Assembly (NCBI GenBank): GCA_045544655.1
Contig: JAZPZL010000051.1
Coordinates: 1 to 35,727, forward strand
Direction of reading: 5' to 3'
Source of the DNA: Eubacteriales bacterium
Lineage (GTDB): Bacteria; Bacillota; Clostridia; Oscillospirales; SIG627
Length of the DNA: 35,727 nucleotides
This document shows positions 2,256-31,372 of this stretch, piece after piece; the stretch's first letter is position 1; the number at the start of each line of letters is the position of its first letter. A program made the translations under genes and the position numbers. The notes beneath the pieces were generated by a model. That model searched no databases and was not told the origin of the DNA. It was given only the letters and a program-made list of their open reading frames with translations.

Positions 2256-2290
2256 TGTCATTGCGTGTCAGTACTCCTTTCGTGTAGAAT
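2256..2290 (+). promoter_or_regulatory. promoter-like element, copy A of a shared 35-nt motif (TGTCA-N5-TGTCA ... TTTCGTgTAGAAT)
   Basis: tgtcattgcgtgtcagtactcctttcgtgtagaat. Readable as -35 TTGCGT, 18-nt spacer, TG-extended -10 TAGAAT. It ends 29 nt before the portal ATG and is 29/35 identical to 27238-27272. Confidence 0.5.
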
Positions 2291-2319: not shown

Positions 2320-3897
2320 ATGAAACAAACCAAACAGGAATTTCTCACGGAGGATTTTAAACTCTTGGAAAAGGGCAGGGAATACAATCGCGCCATTTCC
2401 CTTTACGATACGGTAAACCGCAACGAGCGCTTTTACCGCGGGGATCAGTGGCACGGTGTTGAAAAAGGAGATCTGCCCACGCCGGTCTTTAATCTCTTCA
2501 AGCGAGTGATCAACTACTTCATTTCCACCATTATGAGCCAAAAGATCTCGGTGCATTTTGCGGCGGAAGGAACGGAGATCTTTCACGATAAGGAAAAGCG
2601 CCTTCGTATGGAGGAGGCATGTAGACTTCTTACCCGATACGCCAATTACCGATTTGATCGGGATAAGGTGGATGATCTTCTGAATCGCGGTCTTCTGGAT
2701 GCGGCGGTGACGGGAGATATGTTTCTTTACGTGTACTGGGATCCGGAAAGAAAGACGGCGCAGGGCTTCAAGGGAGATTTTGTGACCACGCTGGTGGACA
2801 GTACTCAGGTCTTTTTCGGTGACGTAAACACCCCCGAGGTGGAATCGCAGCCCTACATCCTTTTGACGGGAAGAGAATTGGTATCCAAATTGCGCCGCGA
2901 GGCACTTGCAGGCGGCGCCACGGAGGAAGAGGCGGCGAAGATCGTCCCCGATGGAGATACGGAGAATCAAAGCGGTGATTTCGGAAAAAAGGAGCTGACG
3001 GATACCAAGGCAAGCTACGTGATTTGTATGTACAAAAAGGACGGTACCGTCCGCTTCCGTAAAAGCTGCAGAGAAACCGTGGTGGTGCCGGAGCGAGATA
3101 CGGGACTTTCCCTTTATCCCTTGGTTCTGATGAACTGGGAGCGGGTGAAAAACTCTTATCACGGGCAGGCGGCGGCGACGAACCTGGTGGAAAACCAGCT
3201 TTACATCAACAAGGCCTTTGCCATGGTGATGAAGCATATGATGGACGTTTCCTTTTCAAAGGTGATCTATAACGCAAATATCATCGATGAATGGACGGGC
3301 GACATTGGTGAGGCGATCGCGGTGAACGGGCCTGTAGAACACGCCGCCGACCGCCTGGACCCCGGAAGCTTGCAGGCAGGCTTTCTGGACGTGATCCAGA
3401 TGACCATTGGGATCACCAAGGAGCTGATGGGAGCCACCGATGCGGCGCTTGGCAACGTAGCGCCCGACAATACAAGCGCCATTATCGCTCTGCAGCAAAG
3501 CTCCGCCGTACCGCTGGAAATGCAGAGAAGAGCGCTCTATACGGCGGTAGAGCGCTTGGGGATGATCTGGCTGGATTTCATTCTGGAATTTTACGATGAA
3601 TCGAGAATGATGCTTTTCCGAGAAAAAGGTGAGCTGCTCGGCGGGAATATTTCTCCTCGTGAAATGAAAAACGTGTTGTTCTCCTGTACGACTCAGGCAG
3701 GCGCTTCCAGCCATTGGAGCGAAATTGCACAGATCACCACGCTGGATCATTTGCTTTCCTCGGGAAACATACGCTTCTCTCAGTATCTGGAGCGGATTCC
3801 CGACGGATATATTCCTGAGCGTGAGGAGCTTTTGGAAGAGGTAAAGGAAGAAGAAAGCAGACTCGCATCTCAAACCGATTTTCCGGCAAACGCCTGA
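2320..3897 (+). CDS. putative phage portal protein
   Basis: 525 aa, with SD aaggagg. First gene of a head module, immediately before scaffold-like and capsid-like genes. N-terminal RFYRGDQW-type motif resembles portal families. Size fits. No search was run. Confidence 0.6.
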   Translation: MKQTKQEFLTEDFKLLEKGREYNRAISLYDTVNRNERFYRGDQWHGVEKGDLPTPVFNLFKRVINYFISTIMSQKISVHFAAEGTEIFHDKEKRLRMEEACRLLTRYANYRFDRDKVDDLLNRGLLDAAVTGDMFLYVYWDPERKTAQGFKGDFVTTLVDSTQVFFGDVNTPEVESQPYILLTGRELVSKLRREALAGGATEEEAAKIVPDGDTENQSGDFGKKELTDTKASYVICMYKKDGTVRFRKSCRETVVVPERDTGLSLYPLVLMNWERVKNSYHGQAAATNLVENQLYINKAFAMVMKHMMDVSFSKVIYNANIIDEWTGDIGEAIAVNGPVEHAADRLDPGSLQAGFLDVIQMTIGITKELMGATDAALGNVAPDNTSAIIALQQSSAVPLEMQRRALYTAVERLGMIWLDFILEFYDESRMMLFREKGELLGGNISPREMKNVLFSCTTQAGASSHWSEIAQITTLDHLLSSGNIRFSQYLERIPDGYIPEREELLEEVKEEESRLASQTDFPANA

Positions 3898-3925
3898 AAA
3901 TAAATCAAAACAAAGGAGGAAAACC

Positions 3926-4348
3926 ATGAAAAAGAAAAAGGAAAAGGAAGTTCTTTCGGAAGAAAAGCTTCCCGAAGAGATCACCTCCGTTCAGGAGGAA
4001 GGCGCGGAGGCGCCTGACGCGGCAGAATTGATGGAGGAGGATATCGCACTCTTTCGCAGTCTGTTCCCCGAGGTGAAAGGAGAGGACATTCCTCAGGAGG
4101 TCTGGGACCGAGTGGAGGCGGGGGAAAGCCTTGCCGCAAGCTACGCCCTTTTTGCGGTGCGAAAGTTCCGTGAAGAGGAGAAGATCTCCCGTATCAACGA
4201 GGAAAACGGAAAAAAGGCACCGCCCCCCGTTGAGGGAGGCTCTGCCGATGGCGATTACTTTTCACCGGAGGCGGTGAAGAATATGAGCCGCAGCGAAATT
4301 CGCAAACACTACGACAAAATTTTATCTTCCATGGAAAAATGGAACTGA
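3926..4348 (+). CDS. putative scaffolding protein (acidic, helical, 140 aa)
   Basis: Sits between the portal-like and capsid-like genes. Very E/K-rich, low-complexity N-terminus. SD aaaggagg. Confidence 0.45.
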   Translation: MKKKKEKEVLSEEKLPEEITSVQEEGAEAPDAAELMEEDIALFRSLFPEVKGEDIPQEVWDRVEAGESLAASYALFAVRKFREEEKISRINEENGKKAPPPVEGGSADGDYFSPEAVKNMSRSEIRKHYDKILSSMEKWN

Positions 4349-4368
4349 AAAAGAAAGGATGAACGATT

Positions 4369-5205
4369 ATGGCTATTCAGAATTTTATTCCCACACTTTG
4401 GAGTGAGACCCTTTACACGGAGCTGGAAAAGGATTACGTCGGCGTAAAGCTTTGCTCTCGCGACTTCGAAGGCGAGATCCGCGGCGAGGGTGACCGTGTT
4501 AAAATTTGCGGGGTAGGACCCGTTACTGTATTCGACTATCACAAGAATCAGGATATGCCCGCCGCCGAGGTGCTTTCCGACACGGAGAGAACGCTGGTTA
4601 TCGATCAGGCAAAGGGCTTCAATTTCTTCCTGGATTCCATTGATCTGGCTCAGTCCAAGAAGGGCTTGATGCAGGCGGCGATGAAGGAGGCGTCCGGCGC
4701 CCTTTCCGACGTGGCTGATCGCTACATCTACTCCCTTACCGATGAAAACGTGGCGGAGCTTGAAAATGCTTCCGCTACCAGCACCAATATCATCAGCACC
4801 ATTGCCGAGGCGAGAAAAATGCTGATGGAGAACAACGTTCCCAACTCTGCCAAGGTATCTCTGGAGGTTCCCCCTGCCATTGAGCAGAAGCTGGTGCTTG
4901 CCAAGGTTCTGCGCTCCACCGACAACGTAGAGGCTTTGGGCAGAGGCTACATCGGCTCCTTTATGGGCTTTGATATTTACGTGACCAACAACATCACCCC
5001 TTCTGCCGACGGCTCTTACCGCTGTATTGCCAGAACCGCCCGTGCCATCGCTTTTGCGGAGCAGGTCTCTGCGGTGAAGGCGTATGAGCCCGAGCTTCGT
5101 CACGGCGACGCGGTGAAGGGACTGCATTTGTACGGCGCCAAGATCGTCTACCCCAAGGAAATGGTATTTCTGAACCTGACCCCCGGGGAAGAAGAAATGA
5201 TCTGA
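4369..5205 (+). CDS. putative major capsid protein (HK97-fold, P22-coat-like small capsid family)
   Basis: 278 aa. N-terminus MAIQNFIPTLWSE...VGV...RDFEGEI..GD.VKI matches the pattern I recall for roughly 280-300-aa clostridial phage capsid proteins. Position after the scaffold gene fits. Confidence 0.7.
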   Translation: MAIQNFIPTLWSETLYTELEKDYVGVKLCSRDFEGEIRGEGDRVKICGVGPVTVFDYHKNQDMPAAEVLSDTERTLVIDQAKGFNFFLDSIDLAQSKKGLMQAAMKEASGALSDVADRYIYSLTDENVAELENASATSTNIISTIAEARKMLMENNVPNSAKVSLEVPPAIEQKLVLAKVLRSTDNVEALGRGYIGSFMGFDIYVTNNITPSADGSYRCIARTARAIAFAEQVSAVKAYEPELRHGDAVKGLHLYGAKIVYPKEMVFLNLTPGEEEMI

Positions 5206-5236
5206 CCCGTTTTGCATCAGAAAATGGAGGAAGGAT

Positions 5237-5620
5237 ATGAAACGCGCTGAAGAACTGTATCACAGAAGTCTTGCCCTGATCGGAGAAATCCCCGGGGCGG
5301 AAAATCAAATTTTCAGGGAGCGTGCGGTTCCGCTGATGAACGTGCTCCTGTCTCAGCTTTACGAGCTGGATATTGCTTTGCGTGGCGGGAAGCTTTGCCC
5401 CGGCGGGATCATTCCTCAGGTCTCGCATCTGGAGGAAACGCTTCCCTTCAGCGAAGCCATCCTTTACACGGTGCTTCCCTTGGGGCTGGCGGGGCTTCTT
5501 TTGATGGAGGAGGAAGCGGAGCGGGGACGCTTCTTTCTCCAGCTTTATCACACCGAGGTGGAGATCCTGCGTGACCGATGCAAGCGTGGGGTCCGCCACA
5601 AGATCAGAAGGAGCGTGTAG
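5237..5620 (+). CDS. hypothetical protein, possible head-completion/adaptor protein
   Basis: 127 aa, with SD ggaggaagg, immediately after the capsid gene. Assigned by position only. Confidence 0.3.
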   Translation: MKRAEELYHRSLALIGEIPGAENQIFRERAVPLMNVLLSQLYELDIALRGGKLCPGGIIPQVSHLEETLPFSEAILYTVLPLGLAGLLLMEEEAERGRFFLQLYHTEVEILRDRCKRGVRHKIRRSV

Positions 5621-5623
5621 CGT

Positions 5624-7327
5624 ATGGCGAAGGATTTTACCCTTGAATTGGAGAGCTTCGGCGGTTTGAAGCTCTCTGCGGATAATACCGACGAGCTTGC
5701 CGTGGGAGAGGGCGCAGAGCTGATCAATTTCCGCATTACCGATGCCAAAAAGCTGAAGCGACGGGAGGGGTATTTCCGCGTTTTTGATGCGCCTTCCGCA
5801 TTGAGGGGGATCTTCTGCGCTTCCGTGAACGGCACTCCCGCGTATCTTGCACTTTGCGGAAAGCACCTTTACGCTTCCCGAGAGGGCTTTGACCGATTGG
5901 AGATGCTGGAAACGGAGGTAGGGGGAGAGGGGAAGGCGTTCTTTTTCCCCTATCACTCCGAGCTCTATCTTTTGACGGGAGAGAATATTTATCGCTACGA
6001 TGGAAAAAGCCTGTCGGAGATCGAGCCCTACGTTCCCGTGATTATGATCTGTACTCCGCCCGGGAAAAGCGGAACGGTATACGAGGATGTCAATCTTCTG
6101 ACCCGAAAGGTGCGCCAGCGCTTGTCTCCCGACGGGATCGGTACGGAGTTTCCTTTGCCGGTGGAAAACATCAAAAGTCTTGACTGGGTAAAGCTTTACG
6201 GAACGGATATGCGGGAGGACAGCTATTGGTTTGATATCGACGATCATTGCCTGAAATTCGTAGGTGCGCCCAGATCCGGTGTGGACAGCATTGAGGTCCA
6301 GTACGAGCTTGTCACCGAGGATGCTTCCGACCGCATCAAAAAATGCCGTTTCGCCACAGCCTTTGGCGGTGCCAGCGATACCCGCGTATTTCTGTACGGC
6401 AATCCCGACAGCCCCGCCGTGCGCTACCATAGCGGTATCGTGGACGGAAAGCCTTCCTTCACCTACTTCCCCGAAACTGCCTTTTCCCTTGTGGGAACGG
6501 GCGAACCCATTACCGCCATTTGCCGTCATTACGACCGCCAATTGATCTTTACCACGGGCAACGCCTACTATTCCTATCTGGAATATATGACGGGATCGGA
6601 GGGGAGGCTGATCGCAGGCTTCCCCGTTCTTCCTATGAATGAAGAGAGAGGCTGTGTTGCCTTGGGTCAGGCAATTCTGGTGAAAAATACCCCCGTTACC
6701 ATTGCCGAGGACGGTTTGTTTCAATGGATCTCCACCAATATACGAGATGAGAGAAACGCAGAAAATCTATCCGATCCCATCGATCAAGCCTTGCAAAAGG
6801 AGTCGCTTGAGCAAGCGATCCTGTTCAATCGCAAGGAAAAATCGGAGCTGTATTTATGCGTAGGTGAGAATCTGTACGTTTACAATTACCGTTTGAAGCT
6901 GTTCTATCGGTATAAGGTGCCGACCATTCTCGGCTTTTGCCAAGGGGATCAATTGTATTTTTACAATGAAGAGGGCATTTTTGCCGTGGGAGGAAATACG
7001 GATGACGGGCAAAGGATCTATGCGGTATGGAAATCAAAGCTGATGGATTTTTCCCACAAGACCCGTGCAAAAAAGCTGTTCGGGACTACGATGATCGCCA
7101 AAGGGGGAGAGGGAAGCGAATTGCAGATCTCCTTGAGAAATGAAAACGACACGGAAATGCTTACGAAGCGGGTACACTTTTCCGGAAAAAGGGAGGGGGA
7201 GCGCATCGAACTTCACACCCCCAAAAGGCGATTCGGGGCAATTGAGATCATTCTTGAGACGGACAGTGAGGAAAGCGTTCACGTGCTTTCCCTTCACTTC
7301 AGGGGAAGGATCACGGATGCAGAATAG
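5624..7327 (+). CDS. hypothetical virion-associated protein with repeated beta-propeller-like blades
   Basis: 567 aa, 3 nt after the previous stop. Recurrent G..LY.Y-type segments: HLYASREG, ELYLLTGENIYRYDG, GNAYYSYLEY, ELYLCVGENLYVYNY, DQLYFYNEEGIFAVGG. Confidence 0.35.
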   Translation: MAKDFTLELESFGGLKLSADNTDELAVGEGAELINFRITDAKKLKRREGYFRVFDAPSALRGIFCASVNGTPAYLALCGKHLYASREGFDRLEMLETEVGGEGKAFFFPYHSELYLLTGENIYRYDGKSLSEIEPYVPVIMICTPPGKSGTVYEDVNLLTRKVRQRLSPDGIGTEFPLPVENIKSLDWVKLYGTDMREDSYWFDIDDHCLKFVGAPRSGVDSIEVQYELVTEDASDRIKKCRFATAFGGASDTRVFLYGNPDSPAVRYHSGIVDGKPSFTYFPETAFSLVGTGEPITAICRHYDRQLIFTTGNAYYSYLEYMTGSEGRLIAGFPVLPMNEERGCVALGQAILVKNTPVTIAEDGLFQWISTNIRDERNAENLSDPIDQALQKESLEQAILFNRKEKSELYLCVGENLYVYNYRLKLFYRYKVPTILGFCQGDQLYFYNEEGIFAVGGNTDDGQRIYAVWKSKLMDFSHKTRAKKLFGTTMIAKGGEGSELQISLRNENDTEMLTKRVHFSGKREGERIELHTPKRRFGAIEIILETDSEESVHVLSLHFRGRITDAE

Positions 7328-7341
7328 GAAAGGAGAAGAAG

Positions 7342-8112
7342 ATGTCACAGACAGATACCATCAAGGCGTATTTGAAGCGACTGGAGGATGGGGCGGCAGA
7401 GATCCGCTCCCGATACAAAAATCTTGCCGCCGCCAGTGATGCCGAGTATCGCGCTAGGATCTCCCGTATGGATGCAGATTACAAGGATGCGGTCAGCGCC
7501 GCATCTGCCCAAGCCCAGATCCATCTGAAAAACAATCTGGAGAAAATGGCGGATGCGGGCTACGTCCGCTCCGGCGAGACGGTACAGGCAACCATTGCGG
7601 CAGGCGCAGACCGAGCGAAGATGCTCTCCTCTTTGAGAGGCGATTATACCCAGGAAAAACAAGCGGTGGAGAACGAGATGTCCCGCGCAAGGGATGGGAT
7701 TTTGCTGGAGGGAGAGAAGGAGGCGGCGGAATATGAAAACCTCGCTGCCGAGACCTTGCTTGCCCAGCAAAATGCCGATCGGGAGTTTGAAGCCGCGCAG
7801 AAACAGCGGGCGTTTGAAAACGAGCTGAAAAAGCAGTCCCTGGCTCAGTCGAAGGCGGAATTTGAATACAAGGTCTCCCAAGAGAAAAAAGAGAAGTCCG
7901 AGGAGGGGATCGTCCCCGAAAAGACGCCTTACGAATACGTAGAGGAGATCGTAAAGCAAAACAGCAGGTACAATAAGAAAAAGAAGTACACGGTGGTGGA
8001 TCGCAAGGCGATCCTGCTGGCGATCTCAGCGGTCGTGAAGGATACCCGCCTGTCCTACAAGTACCGATATGAAATGTACCTTTACGGAAAGAGTATGGGG
8101 TACCTTCAGTAA
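7342..8112 (+). CDS. hypothetical coiled-coil protein (A/E/K/Q-rich)
   Basis: 256 aa, with SD ggaaaggag. Last gene before a strong terminator. Composition is typical of internal virion or assembly proteins, but no motif was recognised. Confidence 0.3.
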   Translation: MSQTDTIKAYLKRLEDGAAEIRSRYKNLAAASDAEYRARISRMDADYKDAVSAASAQAQIHLKNNLEKMADAGYVRSGETVQATIAAGADRAKMLSSLRGDYTQEKQAVENEMSRARDGILLEGEKEAAEYENLAAETLLAQQNADREFEAAQKQRAFENELKKQSLAQSKAEFEYKVSQEKKEKSEEGIVPEKTPYEYVEEIVKQNSRYNKKKKYTVVDRKAILLAISAVVKDTRLSYKYRYEMYLYGKSMGYLQ

Positions 8113-8519: not shown

Positions 8520-8636
8520 AGGTTTAGAACCGACGTACGAGTGTCGAAACGAATGAAAATATGAGGAAGAAAGTGGGTCGTGTATTCATTTTCTTTTTTC
8601 TATTGTTGTATATTTGTAGAGGAAAAACAAGAGGCT

Positions 8637-9230
8637 ATGCTGAATATCAATTTTATACTTACATACTTGGATGAAGAAGCGGATCAAAAGCTTTTGGAGG
8701 ATATCTTTTACGCCTATTCCAAGCAAATGGTAAGTCTTGCCATGACGTATCTGAAAAATAACGAGGATGCCGAGGACGCGGTGGGAACCGTATTCGAAAG
8801 AATCGCTTCCCGCAATTTTGACGTGGTACGAAGCATCAAAAACGATTGTGATATGCGTAACTATTTGTTGAAGGCGACGAAGAATACTTGTCTGAATATG
8901 CTCGGACAAAAGAAAATGACCGTATCCTTTGAACAAATTTCAGAATACGGCTACGTAGAGAAGGGAATGTGTTCGGACGATTCCTTTTTTGAAACGATCT
9001 GCAACAAAATGGACTATGAAGCGGTTCTGAAGGCAATCGGTTCTTTAAATGAAAAGTACCGCGATGCGCTTTATTATCATTTTGTGATGGAGATGACCGT
9101 TTCCGAGGTAGCCAAGCTTATGTTTCAATCCGTATCTGCAACGAAACAACAGCTTGTCCGCGGAAAGAAGATGCTTTTGGCTTTGTTATTAAAAGCGGGA
9201 GAGGAGAACGATGGCAATCAAAAGAAATGA
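8637..9230 (+). CDS. sigma-70 family (ECF-like) RNA polymerase sigma factor
   Basis: Region 2-like EDAEDAVGTVFERI...YLLKATKNTCLNML and region 4 HTH YRDALYYHFVMEMTVSEVAKLM. ATG at 8637 has a purine-rich SD (gaggaaaaacaagagg). The listed GTG 8580 extension reads as noncoding (FFYCCIF). Confidence 0.8.
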   Translation: MLNINFILTYLDEEADQKLLEDIFYAYSKQMVSLAMTYLKNNEDAEDAVGTVFERIASRNFDVVRSIKNDCDMRNYLLKATKNTCLNMLGQKKMTVSFEQISEYGYVEKGMCSDDSFFETICNKMDYEAVLKAIGSLNEKYRDALYYHFVMEMTVSEVAKLMFQSVSATKQQLVRGKKMLLALLLKAGEENDGNQKK

Positions 9231-10474: not shown

Positions 10475-10708
10475 TCAGTCCGTCCCCAAAAAATCGTCAA
10501 GAACCTCCCGAAAATGGATGAGGGAGAGTCCGCCCTCGTTGCAAAGAAATGCGAATTTCTCTGCTTTTGCCCGATCGCAAAACAGATCGGGAAAGGACAG
10601 CGCCTCCTCCCCCTTTTGAGAAACGAGGTCGATGCCGAAGGTGAGGCGGCGTTCGTGAGATTCATCGAAAACGGCGTCTTGACGAACTTGATAAATAAAA
10701 CGTGACAT
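10475..10708 (-). CDS. hypothetical acidic 77-aa protein
   Basis: Starts 4 nt after the upstream XRE stop, so probably translationally coupled. SD gaagga. No motif recognised. Confidence 0.5.
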   Translation of the reverse strand: MSRFIYQVRQDAVFDESHERRLTFGIDLVSQKGEEALSFPDLFCDRAKAEKFAFLCNEGGLSLIHFREVLDDFLGTD

Positions 10709-10712
10709 AGCA

Positions 10713-10907
10713 TTATCCTTCTTCCATGGGCTTTTTCAGAAAGTAGTCAACGGAAACATCCGTCGCATTGGAAATACTTACCAGAGTCTCCAGATTCGGT
10801 CGGTATCTTCCCCGTTCAATATTGCTGATGGTGTCTTTGGAGAGATTCGTTATTTCGCTGAATGCTTCCTGAGAGAGGTGAAGCCTTGTTTTTCGCAAAG
10901 TATACAT
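10713..10907 (-). CDS. XRE-family HTH transcriptional regulator (short form)
   Basis: MYTLRKTRLHLSQEAFSEITNLSKDTISNIERGRYRPNLETL is an HTH. The listed 135-aa form (to 11120) would run through the dpaB terminator at 11046-11079, so the internal ATG at 10907 is preferred. Confidence 0.7.
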   Translation of the reverse strand: MYTLRKTRLHLSQEAFSEITNLSKDTISNIERGRYRPNLETLVSISNATDVSVDYFLKKPMEEG

Positions 10908-27196: not shown

Positions 27197-27226
27197 ATCC
27201 GAAGCGAATACGCTTCCGATTTTTTT
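27197..27226 (+). terminator. intrinsic terminator after the HAD genes
   Basis: atccgaagcg-aata-cgcttccgat (one mismatch) followed by TTTTTT. Confidence 0.6.
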
Positions 27227-27237
27227 GCAGTGAAAAA

Positions 27238-27272
27238 TGTCATTGCGTGTCACGGCTTCTTTCGTCTATAAT
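27238..27272 (+). promoter_or_regulatory. promoter-like element, copy B of the shared 35-nt motif
   Basis: tgtcattgcgtgtcacggcttctttcgtctataat. Readable as -35 TTGCGT, 18-nt spacer, -10 TATAAT. It ends 27 nt before the terS GTG. Confidence 0.5.
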
Positions 27273-27299
27273 ACGGCAAAAATGAAAGGAGTAAAAGCC

Positions 27300-27689
27300 G
27301 TGAAAAAAATGACTGAGGACTTGGCGAAAAAGCGAATTTGCGCCTACTTCGTCTCCCGCAGGGTAGAGAAGCGGGATGCAGAGGGGAACGTTTTGGTGAA
27401 CAAAAGCGGTGAGGTCTTGTATGAAGAAAGACCCTGCACCGTGACGGGCCTTGCCCTGGCGCTGGGCTTTTCCGATCGGGAGGCGATTTTCGGCATCAAA
27501 AACAAAAAAATAAAAGTGCTCGTGGATCGAGCACTTTTGAAAATTGAAGAGGATGCGGAGGAAAAGCTCTTTTGCAAGGACACCTTCCACGGAGCAAAGC
27601 TGTTTTTGGAAACCAATTACAAGCGTTGGCAGGGAGAAGAGACTCAGGAGATCGCCGGACTTGGCGTTTGCTCCCAATGGGCGGAATAG
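27300..27689 (+). CDS. terS: phage terminase small subunit
   Basis: ...RPCTVTGLALALGFSDREAIF...DRALLKIEEDAEEKLF...GAKLFLETNY.RW matches the small-terminase (gp3-like) pattern. GTG 27300 lies 8 nt after SD aaaggag; ATG 27309 is the alternative. Confidence 0.8.
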   Translation: MKKMTEDLAKKRICAYFVSRRVEKRDAEGNVLVNKSGEVLYEERPCTVTGLALALGFSDREAIFGIKNKKIKVLVDRALLKIEEDAEEKLFCKDTFHGAKLFLETNYKRWQGEETQEIAGLGVCSQWAE

Positions 27690-28292
27690 CTACGGCTCAC
27701 GCACCAGATAAAAGGCGCCCTTGTGTATGACGATATCCGTCCATTTGCTCCCTTCGTTGCTGGTACCCAGTGTGAGGGTTGCGGGGAGCTGGGCGTGGTC
27801 CAAGGGATATTTTGCTCCGCTTACGGAGATCACGCCTGAACCTGTAAAATCGAAAAGGGAGAAATATCCCCCGTCAAAATCAAAACGGTAAGAGCCCTCC
27901 GTCAGGTAAGAAACGGAATAGTTTTCGTCTATGAGGATGCCTTGCGCGCCGTTTTCGGTTAAAAAGGCAAGAACCTGCAGATTTGCCAAGGAGTGGGAGA
28001 AGCGTTTTCCGCCCAAGGCTCCGTAAATTTTAAAAGCTCTGTAGCCCCAGCTGAGACCTTCTCTCACCGCTGCGTGAATATCCGTATCGTCTTTTACAGG
28101 GGGGAGAACCACGGTGTCGATCCCGTCGGGAGTGAAGCCCAAGGAATCCCCGTCGCCGATGAAAAGATCGGGGTGGATACCCGCTTTTTTAAGATGCTTG
28201 TAACCGGCATCTGCGGCAATGAGAAGATCTTCTTTTTCAAGATGCAAAAGGGAAGGAGAAAAATCTCCCGCTCCTACTACGTGGCAAATCAT
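27690..28292 (-). CDS. thiN: thiamine diphosphokinase
   Basis: VVGAGDF...LLIAADAGY...FIGDGDSLG...VKDDTDIH...YGALGGKRFSHSLANL is the TPK pattern. Its stop codon abuts the terS stop with a 0-nt gap. Confidence 0.8.
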   Translation of the reverse strand: MICHVVGAGDFSPSLLHLEKEDLLIAADAGYKHLKKAGIHPDLFIGDGDSLGFTPDGIDTVVLPPVKDDTDIHAAVREGLSWGYRAFKIYGALGGKRFSHSLANLQVLAFLTENGAQGILIDENYSVSYLTEGSYRFDFDGGYFSLFDFTGSGVISVSGAKYPLDHAQLPATLTLGTSNEGSKWTDIVIHKGAFYLVREP

Positions 28293-28301
28293 TGATAGCG
28301 T

Positions 28302-28949
28302 TTATCCTTTCTTGATCGTGGGAAGCTTTGCAAGGCAAAAGCCGCTGAAAGCGGTAATGAGAATTTCAGGCAGCATATAAAGTCCGTTGTATACGACGGA
28401 GTAAACGGTGGCAAGACCCGCGCCGCTGAAGGTCTTCATGACCCAGGCGGAAATGGCGAGATCCTTTGCCGCGCTTTCCGTAAAGAACCATTCTGCCCAC
28501 GCACCGTAGAAAACGGCACCGGAGATCACGTGGAAGAGGTAGCAGAGGAAAAGTCCCAGAACACTGCCCCAAACGATCGCCCATTTTTTGGAGAGGGTAT
28601 TGCGGAAGATTCCGCCGAGACCTACCGAGGTGAAGGCGAGTACGTAGTCCAGAAGCAAAATGAGAATGGCGATCCCTGCGCCCATATAGGAATCGGAGGT
28701 AGGGATGAAGAGGGCGGATACCGTCTTAAAGCCTACTGCCATTTGAAGCAGGGAAAAGACGAAGGCACTGCCCAGACCCCAGCCAAGCCCGTACATCCAG
28801 GAGATCAGAACCAGAGGCAAAAGACTTGCCAGGGTAATGGTTCCGCCGAAGGGAAGATTGAGAAAGGGGATCCATTCGGATACGAAGGAAATTGCGGTAC
28901 CCAAAGCAATGAGCATTGCCGAGGTGACCAGTTTTTGGGTTTTGTTCAT
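28302..28949 (-). CDS. thiT: energy-coupled (ECF) thiamine transporter S component
   Basis: Six-TM, 215-aa protein starting MNKTQKLVTSAMLIALGTAISFV. Directly downstream of a TPP riboswitch. SD aaggag. Confidence 0.8.
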   Translation of the reverse strand: MNKTQKLVTSAMLIALGTAISFVSEWIPFLNLPFGGTITLASLLPLVLISWMYGLGWGLGSAFVFSLLQMAVGFKTVSALFIPTSDSYMGAGIAILILLLDYVLAFTSVGLGGIFRNTLSKKWAIVWGSVLGLFLCYLFHVISGAVFYGAWAEWFFTESAAKDLAISAWVMKTFSGAGLATVYSVVYNGLYMLPEILITAFSGFCLAKLPTIKKG

Positions 28950-28964
28950 AACAAACTCCTTAAG

Positions 28965-28998
28965 AAAAAATTCGCACAGGACGGAAGTCCCGTGCGAA
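28965..28998 (-). terminator. riboswitch expression-platform terminator
   Basis: Minus strand reads GCACGGGAC-ttcc-GTCCTGTGC (one G-U) followed by GAATTTTTT, between the aptamer and the thiT SD. Confidence 0.7.
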
Positions 28999-29019
28999 CG
29001 CGAATCTGGTTCTCATAAA

Positions 29020-29100
29020 AACTCCCTACGCCGGTATTATCCATCTCAGGTTGGAGGGTTCGCGGTCTCCCGCATCTCAGCCGTTTCAACAGCACCCCTG
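29020..29100 (-). promoter_or_regulatory. TPP (THI-box) riboswitch aptamer
   Basis: Minus strand reads caGGGGTGCtgttgaaacgGCTGAGAtgcgggagaccgcgaACCCtccAACCTGAgatGGATAATACCgGCGTAGGGAgt. All conserved THI-box blocks are present. Confidence 0.9.
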
Positions 29101-29125
29101 TTTTTCCGCTCATGTGCGTGACATT

Positions 29126-29154
29126 ATCTTAGTCCTTTTTTCACGGTTTGTCAA
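29126..29154 (-). promoter_or_regulatory. sigma-A promoter of the thiT-thiN operon
   Basis: Minus strand reads TTGACA (29149-29154), 17-nt spacer, TAAGAT (29126-29131), about 25 nt upstream of the riboswitch. Confidence 0.65.
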
Positions 29155-29161
29155 GAGAAAA

Positions 29162-30529
29162 ATGAATGCAATTGAAAAATTATTGTCGTCTCTCCATCCG
29201 TTCCCGCCTCAGGAGGCGTTTTTTCGTGCCAAGGCTCGGAGGATCGCCTACGGCGGTGCCAGAGGTGGCGGAAAAAGCTTTGCCATGCGCGCCAAGCTGG
29301 TCCTGCTCGCCTTGCGCTACGGGGGGATTCAGATCCTGCTTTTGCGTCGTAGCTTTCCCGAGTTGCGGGAAAACCATATCAATCCTCTGCGCCGATGGCT
29401 CCACGGGATCGCCCATTTTCGGGAATCCACCAAGGAGTTTATTTTCCCCAACGGCTCACGGATCAAATTGGGATATCTGGCTGAGGAAGCCGACGCCCTC
29501 CAGTATCAGGGTCAGGCGTATGAGGTGATCGGGATGGAGGAAGCCACCCAATTTACCGAAAACCAGTATTACGCGATGACCGAATGCTGCCGTCTTTCGG
29601 GAGCAATGCGGGAAAAATTCGTTCCCCGTATGTACTTTACCATGAACCCGGGAGGAGTGGGTCACGCCTGGGTCAAGCGGCTTTTTATTGATCGGGACTA
29701 TCGGGAGGGGGAGTGTGCCGAGGATTACGTTTTCATCCCCTCCACGGTGTATGATAACCGCTATTTGCTGAAAGAAAATCCGGAATACGTGCGAAATCTG
29801 GAAAGCCTTCCTCCCTTGCGGCGTAAGGCGATGCTGGAGGGGGATTGGGACGCCTTCGAGGGACAGTATTTTACGGAATTTGACCGAAAACGCCACGAGA
29901 TCCCACCTTTTGAGATCCCCGGTGGCTGGCACCGCTTTGCGGCAGTGGACTACGGACTGGATATGACCTGCTGTCTGTGGTTTGCCTATCCTCCCGACCG
30001 AAGCCGACTGGTGGTCTATCGGGAGCTGCATCAGCCGGATCTGGTGCTTTCCGAAGCGGCGCGGAAAATTGCGGAGGCAACGGGAGAAGAGGAGCTGCGG
30101 TATATTGCCGCATCTCCGGACCTTGCGGGCAGACGGCAGGACCTGGGAAAAACGGGCTTTGATATTATGGCGGGGGGAGGCCTTAAGGGGCTTGTTCCCG
30201 CAGACAACAGCCGCATTCCGGGCTGGCGGCGCATACGGGAATTTTTGAGAGCGGAAGGGGAGGAGGGCGCTTATTTCGGTATTTTTTCTTCCTGTCCCAA
30301 TCTTCTCCGCACTTTGCCCCGATTGACCTTCGACTCCGTGCATACCGAGGATGCCGCCTTGACTCCTCACGAGATCACCCACGCCCCCGATGCTCTGCGG
30401 TACGGACTTGCCTCCTTGAGCTTCTTGCCGGGACAAAGGGTGGAAAGCGCGGAGCGGATCCGAGATCTGCGGGCGGAGTTTTTCGGAAAGAAGGAGCGGT
30501 CTTTGTATTTTGATTTTTTGAAAAAGTAA
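29162..30529 (+). CDS. terL: phage terminase large subunit
   Basis: Walker A YGGARGGGKS, Walker B-like YEVIGMEEA, nuclease-domain AAVDYGLD and C-terminal HAPDALRY. 455 aa from ATG 29162. The listed 29051 start lies inside the riboswitch. Confidence 0.85.
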   Translation: MNAIEKLLSSLHPFPPQEAFFRAKARRIAYGGARGGGKSFAMRAKLVLLALRYGGIQILLLRRSFPELRENHINPLRRWLHGIAHFRESTKEFIFPNGSRIKLGYLAEEADALQYQGQAYEVIGMEEATQFTENQYYAMTECCRLSGAMREKFVPRMYFTMNPGGVGHAWVKRLFIDRDYREGECAEDYVFIPSTVYDNRYLLKENPEYVRNLESLPPLRRKAMLEGDWDAFEGQYFTEFDRKRHEIPPFEIPGGWHRFAAVDYGLDMTCCLWFAYPPDRSRLVVYRELHQPDLVLSEAARKIAEATGEEELRYIAASPDLAGRRQDLGKTGFDIMAGGGLKGLVPADNSRIPGWRRIREFLRAEGEEGAYFGIFSSCPNLLRTLPRLTFDSVHTEDAALTPHEITHAPDALRYGLASLSFLPGQRVESAERIRDLRAEFFGKKERSLYFDFLKK

Positions 30530-30558
30530 TTGACTCTGAATCGTTTCTTTGGTAGAAT
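30530..30558 (+). promoter_or_regulatory. sigma-A promoter for the QueG-like gene
   Basis: TTGACT (30530-30535), 17-nt spacer, TAGAAT (30553-30558). It starts immediately after the terL stop codon (30527-30529). Confidence 0.6.
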
Positions 30559-30574
30559 TCCAAAGGAGGGTATT

Positions 30575-31372
30575 ATGCTGAGAACCTTTTTTGAACAGGA
30601 AAAAATTGAATATTTTACACCGCTGTCTCCCGAGGATATTACCCTTTGGGATCGGGAGAAGTATGAGCGTATCCAGTCCCAAATCGGCAAAATCAAAAGC
30701 GTAGTGGTCTTTCTCATTCCCTATCATGCAGGGCAAAAAACCACCAATTTATCCGTTTATGCCCAGGTGAAGGATTATCATCTGTACCTGCGGGAGCTGT
30801 CTGCTCGTCTGGATGCCTTTTTGAAGGAAAAGGGGGCTTGTGTTGCCTTCCGTGGCTTTGCGGATTCCTCCCCTCTGGCAGAGCGGGAGACCGCACTTGC
30901 GGCGGGACTGGGCGTAATGGGGGAAAACGGGCTTCTCATCCATCCCAAATACGGCTCCTTCTTTTTCATCGGCGCATTCTTTTTCACCGAGGAATTGATG
31001 CCAAGTGAGCCGAAAAGAGAAACGGAAAAATGCCTTTCTTGCGGTGCCTGTAAAAATGCTTGTCCCACGGGTGCCATCTATGACCCCAAGCGGGAAAGGT
31101 GCCTGTCTCTCATTTCTCAGAAGAAAAATCGCACCCCCGAAGAGGATGCGCTCCTGGAAAAGGCGGATTGCAAATGGGGCTGTGATCTTTGTCAGAACGT
31201 GTGTCCCATGAATCAAAGCGCCGCCCTGACCCCCATTCCCTTTTTCCAAAGGGATCATATTACCGAGTTGACCCCGGAGGCGGCAGAGCTGCCGAAGGAG
31301 GAATTTCTTTCCCGCGCCTTTTCCTGGCGGGGCAGAGAGATCATCCGCAAAAATTTAAAAAAATCGGAGTGA
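30575..31372 (+). CDS. queG: epoxyqueuosine reductase-like 4Fe-4S protein
   Basis: ADSSPLAERETALAAGLGVMGENGLLIHPKYGSFFFIG, plus CLSCGACKNACP and CKWGCDLCQNVCP. SD aaaggaggg before ATG 30575. Shorter (265 aa) than classical QueG. Confidence 0.65.
   Translation: MLRTFFEQEKIEYFTPLSPEDITLWDREKYERIQSQIGKIKSVVVFLIPYHAGQKTTNLSVYAQVKDYHLYLRELSARLDAFLKEKGACVAFRGFADSSPLAERETALAAGLGVMGENGLLIHPKYGSFFFIGAFFFTEELMPSEPKRETEKCLSCGACKNACPTGAIYDPKRERCLSLISQKKNRTPEEDALLEKADCKWGCDLCQNVCPMNQSAALTPIPFFQRDHITELTPEAAELPKEEFLSRAFSWRGREIIRKNLKKSE

Follow-up and report, generated by a model that had tools for sequence, protein, structure and literature searches.

How can two co-oriented genes of one DNA-packaging machine be expressed together when a vitamin operon lies reversed between them? 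This question is raised by a 35,727-nt stretch of DNA (contig JAZPZL010000051.1, below the window) from the 2.2-Mb genome of an Eubacteriales bacterium, in which the thiN-thiT operon, encoded on the opposite strand and equipped with a thiamine pyrophosphate (TPP) riboswitch, sits between the small terminase gene terS (+) and the large terminase gene terL (+). Our comparative analysis leans towards a noncontiguous operon, in which terL would be made by read-through from the late promoter of terS. The split terS/thi/terL layout was seen in at least 13 independent metagenome-assembled genome (MAG) assemblies and, because it recurs among them, is not an assembly artefact.

The geometry of the junction, as described in a first-pass annotation of this DNA, was borne out by open reading frame (ORF) coordinates, profile matches and a promoter scan (Table 1). 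As had been described, terS carries a terminator and a promoter element of its own upstream, and this terminator is predicted to insulate the terS promoter from upstream transcription. An ATG at 27237 falls within the promoter motif, and the actual start of terS is at 27309 (or GTG 27301). The stop codon of terS (TAG, 27687-27689) directly abuts that of the convergent thiN, with 0 nt between the two ORFs, and thiN, thiT, the TPP riboswitch and the thiT promoter fill the space up to 29154. The -35 hexamer of this promoter ends 7 nt before the terL ATG (29162). The Shine-Dalgarno (SD) sequence of terL is weak (AAGAGAAAAATG); it is short (AAGAG or AAGGAG) and overlaps the flank of the thi -35 hexamer, a flank that doubles as the ribosome-binding region of terL.

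The distribution of promoter motifs around this junction points to transcription of terL from upstream of terS. The late-promoter motif shared by the loci of this system consists of the 15-mer TGTCATTGCGTGTCA, a spacer of 14 nt (N14) and the -10 hexamer TAnAAT. With up to three mismatches allowed, a copy was found upstream of terS in 13 of the 16 genomes with a split layout, and none was found between terS and terL in 16/16. At the same threshold, 17 of the 20 relatives having terS carry a copy 65-135 nt upstream of the point where the terS match begins. A conserved TGTGCGTG near 29113-29120 was considered as a half of the late motif and rejected, as no -10 hexamer stands at the right distance; it more likely belongs to the thi leader. 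Furthermore, scanning the 400 nt upstream of terL for σA promoters revealed no strong, positionally conserved + strand promoter in the split genomes.

The path of such a read-through transcript appears to be clear of termination signals. No + strand intrinsic terminator was found between 27216 and 29205 in the window, and the terminator of the riboswitch expression platform has no T-run 3' of its hairpin on the + strand. A search for the Rho RNA-binding domain (PF07497), whose control worked, found it in none of the 20 genomes of the genus, and this lineage apparently has no Rho termination factor; Rho polarity would therefore not act on the untranslated 1.5 kb. It had been argued beforehand that terL must be read either antisense through the cassette or from a hidden promoter, a logic that is sound and is strengthened by the single late motif, by the lack of a strong σA promoter and of a + strand terminator, and by the absence of Rho. 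The arrangement is that of noncontiguous operons, in which same-strand genes are interrupted by one or more opposite-strand genes: terS (+) is followed by thiN (-) and thiT (-) and then by terL (+), and the insert has a predicted promoter of its own (TTGACA-17-TAAGAT). We infer the read-through transcript, and any mutual interference, from the distribution of promoter motifs and terminators.

Under this reading, transcription of terL would start at the late promoter of terS and cover ~1.47 kb in antisense to thiN, thiT and the riboswitch, while terL would be translated from its own short SD. The thi operon would be transcribed in the opposite direction from the σA promoter that stands 7 nt from the terL ATG, gated by TPP, and its transcription would end at a one-directional terminator placed in terS codons. 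The late transcript probably also reaches the QueG-like gene directly downstream; no terminator lies between terL and this gene, and their adjacency is kept across the genus. A σA-like promoter with an extended -10 (TTGACT-17-TAGAAT, 30530-30558) is available to the QueG-like gene as well and starts right after the terL stop.

An alternative, which we regard as unlikely while giving it real weight, is that terL has its own promoter in the thiT leader, most plausibly through divergent transcription from the symmetric thiT -10, so that the split would amount to two transcription units. Bidirectional promoters arising from -10 symmetry are well known. Two + strand hexamers are positionally conserved before terL, and both are by-products of other elements, one being the mirror of the thiT -10 and the other a TATTAT within the aptamer's GGAUAAUACC. 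In the window the mirror reads TATCTT (29125-29130, ~31 nt before the terL ATG), with A2 and T6 kept in all genomes, and 16/16 split genomes carry TATCTT, TATGAT or TATTAT (A2, T6) 27-50 nt before the terL ATG. A weak divergent promoter is thus predicted before terL from the symmetry of the thiT -10. In addition, read-through would be hindered in some relatives by terminator-like hairpins on the + strand of the insert (e.g., L024, with an 11-bp stem followed by TTTTTTATA). Both observations weigh against transcription of terL from the terS promoter. However, the thiT -10 produces this hexamer automatically, and the conservation of the hexamer is therefore uninformative as to a promoter dedicated to terL. 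Its -35 partner is poor (TTTTCC, 3/6 in the window; 1-3 of 6 overall), and it comes with neither an extended -10 nor a copy of the late motif. A separate promoter would also uncouple the terminase nuclease from capsid synthesis, whereas all other loci of the system carry the late motif. As to the hairpins, six weak + strand terminator-like sites were counted in ~22 kb of insert across relatives; these could lower read-through where they occur, yet terL is conserved in the genomes concerned. From this count we draw no claim that selection has kept + strand terminators out of the insert.

It had been stated that neither terS nor thiN has a terminator where they meet. This stands for the + strand of the interval and fails for thiN, which has a strong minus-strand terminator inside terS. 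An 11-bp hairpin stem at 27512-27538 is followed on the minus strand by a T-tract at 27502-27511 (ATTTTTTTGT), ~150 nt past the thiN stop, and the 3' end of the thi transcript would overlap approximately the last 180 nt of terS. The embedded hairpin is kept, together with a T-rich tail, in 12 of the 14 thiN-bearing genomes, where the folding free energy (ΔG) of its core lies between -13 and -17.5 kcal/mol; in the remaining two (L026 and L050) the terminator is intergenic. Where no convergent thiN is present, the terS peptide is similar and the hairpin is absent or decayed. In the genome that has lost the cassette (L025/G012), the peptide is nearly identical and ΔG is -2.0 kcal/mol.

Pairing in the embedded hairpin amounted to 90%, compared with 30-60% in slid controls. 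One compensatory change was observed: one arm has GTG→GCG (Val→Ala), and the opposite arm a matching, synonymous GCA→GCG. Covariation is modest, as this is a single event common to three close relatives, and this tells against selection on the hairpin. On the + strand side there are at most two T in 9 nt in every genome, and therefore the hairpin should not stop transcription from terS to terL. Together, these patterns suggest a one-directional terminator that selection has written into terS codons and whose presence tracks that of thiN.

The insert itself is a regulated operon. The riboswitch matched RF00059 over the full model (66.9 bits, gathering score 54.3) and is accompanied by an expression-platform terminator, as is characteristic of its class; it was found exactly in those relatives that have thiT and not in those without. 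The -35 hexamer TTGACA of the thi promoter is invariant in 16/16 split genomes. In L031 (G007), which has thiN only, a TTGACA/TATAAT promoter is kept beside terL, and a bidirectional terminator-like hairpin stands between thiN and terL at the former riboswitch site; this hairpin may be a remnant of the expression platform. A different riboswitch, of the ZMP/ZTP class (RF01750, 62.8 bits), was observed just beyond terS in a sister genus (L033/G022, 10697-10776).

Table 1. Features of the window discussed in the text; promoters and terminators are predictions.
Feature	Position (nt)	Strand	Remarks
Late-promoter copy 1	2256-2290	+	TGTCATTGCGTGTCA-N14-TAGAAT; exact 15-mer; precedes head operon
Head operon	2320-8112	+	PHROG matches
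Portal	2320-3897	+	phrog_156, 1e-31
Probable scaffold	3926-4348	+	
Major head protein	4369-5205	+	phrog_267, 5e-40
Virion structural protein	5624-7327	+	phrog_3287, 1e-12; one of three further head-operon ORFs
Sigma-70-family factor	8580-9230	+	Sigma70_r2/r4, phrog_1740 6e-17; adjoins head operon
Terminator of upstream HAD-hydrolase gene	27201-27226	+	Hairpin GAAGCGAATACGCTTC then T-run
Late-promoter copy 2	27238-27272	+	15-mer 27238-27252, -10 hexamer TATAAT 27267-27272; drives terS
terS, P22-gp3-like small terminase, 126 aa	27309-27689	+	Alternative GTG start 27301
Intrinsic terminator of thiT-thiN operon	27502-27538	-	Unidirectional; within terS codons for ...NKKIKVLVDRALL...
thiN, thiamine pyrophosphokinase	27690-28292	-	TPK_catalytic 1e-13, TPK_B1_binding 1e-6
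thiT, thiamine energy-coupling factor (ECF) S-component	28302-28949	-	Thia_YuaJ 2e-21
Riboswitch expression-platform terminator	28960-28999 (hairpin 28970-28999)	-	13-bp stem then TTTTTTCTTAA
TPP riboswitch aptamer	29006-29109	-	RF00059, 66.9 bits
Predicted σA promoter of thi operon	29154-29126	-	TTGACA-17-TAAGAT; score 10/12
terL, large terminase, 455 aa	29162-30529	+	ATPase and nuclease motifs intact
QueG-like iron-sulphur (Fe-S) gene	30530-31372	+	Directly 3' of terL; probable ATG 30575

Comparison of the terS-to-terL interval over 21 terS-containing loci allowed the history of the split to be traced. Thirteen genomes have both thiT and thiN in the interval, one has thiN only (G007) and two have thiT only (G022 and G023), while terS and terL are adjacent in the other five (G012, G020, G021, L051 and L052), 1-4 nt apart where the junction could be read. 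Adjacency elsewhere, which the first-pass annotation had proposed to look for, thus occurs in 5/21 loci. In the terL tree the adjacent state is basal (L035, L051 and L052); the arrival of thiT maps to an inner node of the family (100/97), and that of thiN to the base of the genus. The adjacent genome L025/G012 is nested inside the thiT+thiN clade (100/96), which indicates secondary loss of the cassette; no thiT was detectable anywhere in this genome, and G020 and G007 carry thi genes at other loci. That the terL tree is a gene tree and not a species tree counts against this order of events. The earlier suggestion of a cellular cassette inserted into the packaging module finds support in these data and acquires a direction: the adjacent state is basal, thiT came first, thiN joined it where the genus begins, and the cassette was later lost from one lineage.

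The thiT gene at the junction (window 28302-28949) shares 68-80% identity within the main clade and 30-37% with its counterparts in L050, L032 and L033, whose terL is 70-75% identical. This discrepancy points to exchange of the cassette in place, which probably happened at least once. We propose that, in the ancestor of several genera, a TPP-riboswitch-thiT cassette would have landed in reversed orientation exactly in the 1-4-nt junction of terS and terL, thiN being added later.

A further idea, which we consider improbable, is that the cassette acts as a metabolic gate on DNA packaging and is not a passenger. According to this idea, at low TPP the riboswitch would let the strong thi promoter fire head-on against the late transcript, and the thi transcript would run ~180 nt into terS. 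Polymerase collision and cleavage by RNase III, whose gene is present in the genome, would then lower expression of terL and perhaps of terS, so that vitamin-starved cells would not fill or release particles. If gating is at work, exchange of the cassette in place would make the terS/terL junction a maintained regulatory site. G007 has lost thiT and the riboswitch while keeping the promoter and thiN, and the entire cassette is gone from G012. Both genomes retain an intact terL, which argues for a tolerated passenger rather than an essential regulator and weakens gating. Regulation of packaging by thiamine status is possible but unsupported.

The terL product matches Terminase_3/6N and phrog_979 (8e-46), and a profile of 13 sequences aligns over positions 34-421 to the solved large terminases 5OE8/5OEA; a search of the PDB with the single terL sequence gave no match. 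Walker A (GGGKS), Walker B (G(M/L)EE), NPGG, DYG and PDALRY are in register with 5OE8 and invariant across the 13 terL sequences. TerL thus has both the N-terminal Walker A/B ATPase and the C-terminal RNase-H-like nuclease with catalytic Asp by which large terminases are recognized. The assignment of terS is weaker, each of its lines of evidence being modest alone. Its product matches GP3_package (1.4e-5; 25.7 bits, under the gathering score of 29.4) and phrog_606 (2e-6), and a profile search against the PDB returned noise only. The AlphaFold (AF2) model of TerS has a predicted local distance difference test (pLDDT) score of 84, and its top five fold matches were all P22 gp3 (3P9A; probability 0.92-0.97, template-modelling (TM) score ~0.5). 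Sequence and fold matches are joined by the ancestral position of the gene directly upstream of terL, as expected for a P22-gp3-type small terminase; terS adjoins terL in L025, L034, L035 and L051.

Both genes are under purifying selection. One intact copy of terL is present in each of the 20 genomes of the genus (72-92% identity) and of the five sister genera of the family (63-70% identity), i.e., in 25/25 family genomes, so that the truncation or absence in relatives that would have signalled decay does not occur there. Pairwise ratios of nonsynonymous to synonymous substitution (dN/dS) against the closest relatives (L021, L022 and L043) were 0.04-0.06 for terL and 0.05-0.09 for terS, at dS >1, and the genus-wide medians were 0.10 and 0.23, respectively. 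A 37%-identical partial terL match (residues 166-414) was also seen on a Heimdallarchaeota MAG contig (L057, JABCTC010000034); it is probably a virus or a binning contaminant.

This conservation bears on what kind of element the genes belong to. The first-pass annotation had spoken of a phage packaging module, a description that does not fit the setting, which is a chromosomal, dispersed set of phage-derived genes. Two HAD hydrolases lie upstream of terS/terL, and the QueG-like gene, a thioesterase and lipid-metabolism genes lie downstream. That no integrase, replication, tail-tube or other phage genes stand next to terS/terL would agree with remnants of a decaying prophage in which the thi cassette sits in dead DNA. 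This reading is effectively refuted by the conservation evidence and we give it almost no credence: terL is intact throughout the family, dN/dS (ω) of terS/terL is 0.04-0.23 at saturated dS, the catalytic motifs are invariant, and a single promoter motif unites the co-conserved head and lysis genes.

An active mobile element (a prophage or a capsid-forming satellite) that is not owned by the host would be another reading, and it too is highly improbable. The P22-like terS, terL, portal, capsid, holin and endolysin genes and a late-promoter regulon are typical of phages. The loci are, however, single-copy and lie dispersed among housekeeping genes, separated by 9-87 kb or placed on different contigs. 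Genomes cluster by genus and family in the gene tree, and no integrase was seen in the window; a mobile element was rejected on this conservation and dispersal. An intact prophage has contiguous modules for integration, regulation, replication, morphogenesis and lysis, whereas here the structural loci are dispersed and have housekeeping flanks.

What the data favour is an old, domesticated and dispersed particle gene set. The major capsid gene is intact and co-occurs with terL in 25/25 family genomes, but at separate loci. In the window, 25 kb separate the head operon from terS/terL; relatives have the two on different contigs or at a distance of 9-87 kb, while in genomes of the order outside the family (G031, G033 and G040) terL and the capsid gene lie within ~4 kb. 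The 15-mer of the late motif has four exact copies in the 2.2-Mb genome, compared with ~0.004 expected by chance, and these precede the portal operon (2256), terS (27238), a holin/fibre/endolysin locus (C258) and dnaA (C194). The sigma-70-family factor that adjoins the head operon may be the late regulator. Structural, packaging and lysis genes are thus chromosomally fixed and vertically inherited, as in gene transfer agents (GTAs), and no integrase or replication module was seen in the 35.7-kb window or in the C258 locus. Because terL and capsid genes are co-conserved at separate loci, dN/dS is low and one late-promoter motif is shared, terS and terL appear to belong to a vertically inherited, GTA-like particle gene set of the P22 short-tailed type with at least three loci. 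The particles of GTAs carry random host DNA in lengths below that of the gene set encoding them; for this lineage, particle production and DNA packaging are predictions from gene content, which counts against this assignment.

The third late-promoter locus (C258:5871-9339) encodes a holin (phrog_608), a small unknown protein, a tail fibre and an amidase endolysin (phrog_435, 4e-43). The tail-fibre protein (606 aa) contains collagen repeats and dockerin-like DxNxDG repeats, and the tail of the endolysin is rich in Pro/Thr/Glu. At C194:80-400, an exact late 15-mer stands upstream of a 6-codon mini-ORF (MLNKYG), which is followed by an AT-rich region with DnaA-box-like repeats and then by dnaA-dnaN-recF-gyrB-gyrA. 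A 'late' promoter of a particle system pointing at the replication-origin region was unexpected.

Taken overall, the locus would be a noncontiguous operon within a GTA-like domesticated phage system, and both kinds are already known. The closest parallel for the former is, from the parts of the literature consulted, the S. aureus operon menE-menC-MW1733-ytkD-MW1731 (Sáenz-Lahoya et al. 2019; review, PMC7154746), where co-oriented linked genes are likewise split by opposite-strand gene(s) with their own promoter and a long transcript runs antisense to the insert. The spanning transcript was shown in S. aureus, whereas here we infer it. The present insert differs in being a two-gene, riboswitch-gated operon with its terminator inside the coding sequence of the upstream gene, and the host operon in being that of a domesticated phage particle. 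In the S. aureus phage 80α, a noncontiguous operon of cI/tha-1 with the antisense gene ith-1 was described, and mutual exclusion by polymerase collision was shown experimentally (PMC11087260). There too a phage-derived operon is interrupted by an antisense gene, but that gene is a phage immunity inhibitor tied to an operon of the lysogeny module, while the insert described here is a cellular vitamin-salvage cassette in a packaging module, with no known tie to packaging. Riboswitch-controlled antisense RNAs provide examples of metabolite-conditional antisense transcription (PMC7154746), in which a riboswitch similarly decides whether transcription antisense to neighbours proceeds. The regulatory output of the known cases is the antisense RNA itself, whereas the present riboswitch acts on a normal mRNA, and an antisense effect on terS/terL would be a by-product.

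The nearest known particle system is FpGTA of Faecalibacterium prausnitzii (PMC12946183), in which a single 10.5-kb operon, FpGTA I, leads from terS and terL via portal to capsid. Both systems occur in gut Clostridia, have terS, terL, portal, scaffold and capsid genes of the short-tailed-phage type and a second locus for fibre, holin and endolysin, lack replication and integration genes and are conserved across species; the C258 locus parallels FpGTA operon II. In contrast to the single operon of FpGTA I, terS/terL are here detached from the head operon (25 kb) and are themselves split. The likeness is one of gene content. A full-text literature search found no paper joining terminase, thiT and riboswitch. 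New here are the terS-embedded terminator and its loss with the cassette, the ordered insertion, exchange and loss of the cassette, the genus-wide absence of Rho, the assignment of the locus to the noncontiguous operons and the rival offered by the symmetric -10.

Hence, a domesticated particle system can be dismantled and interleaved with host genes while under strong selection, and awareness of this layout helps to recognize GTA-like systems that prophage finders miss. The locus also offers a natural test case for noncontiguous operons, with a riboswitch-gated insert, a terminator in the codons of the opposing gene and two natural revertants (G012 and G007). If read-through and interference both hold true, gene transfer in an abundant lineage of gut and rumen Clostridia could be tied to vitamin B1 status.

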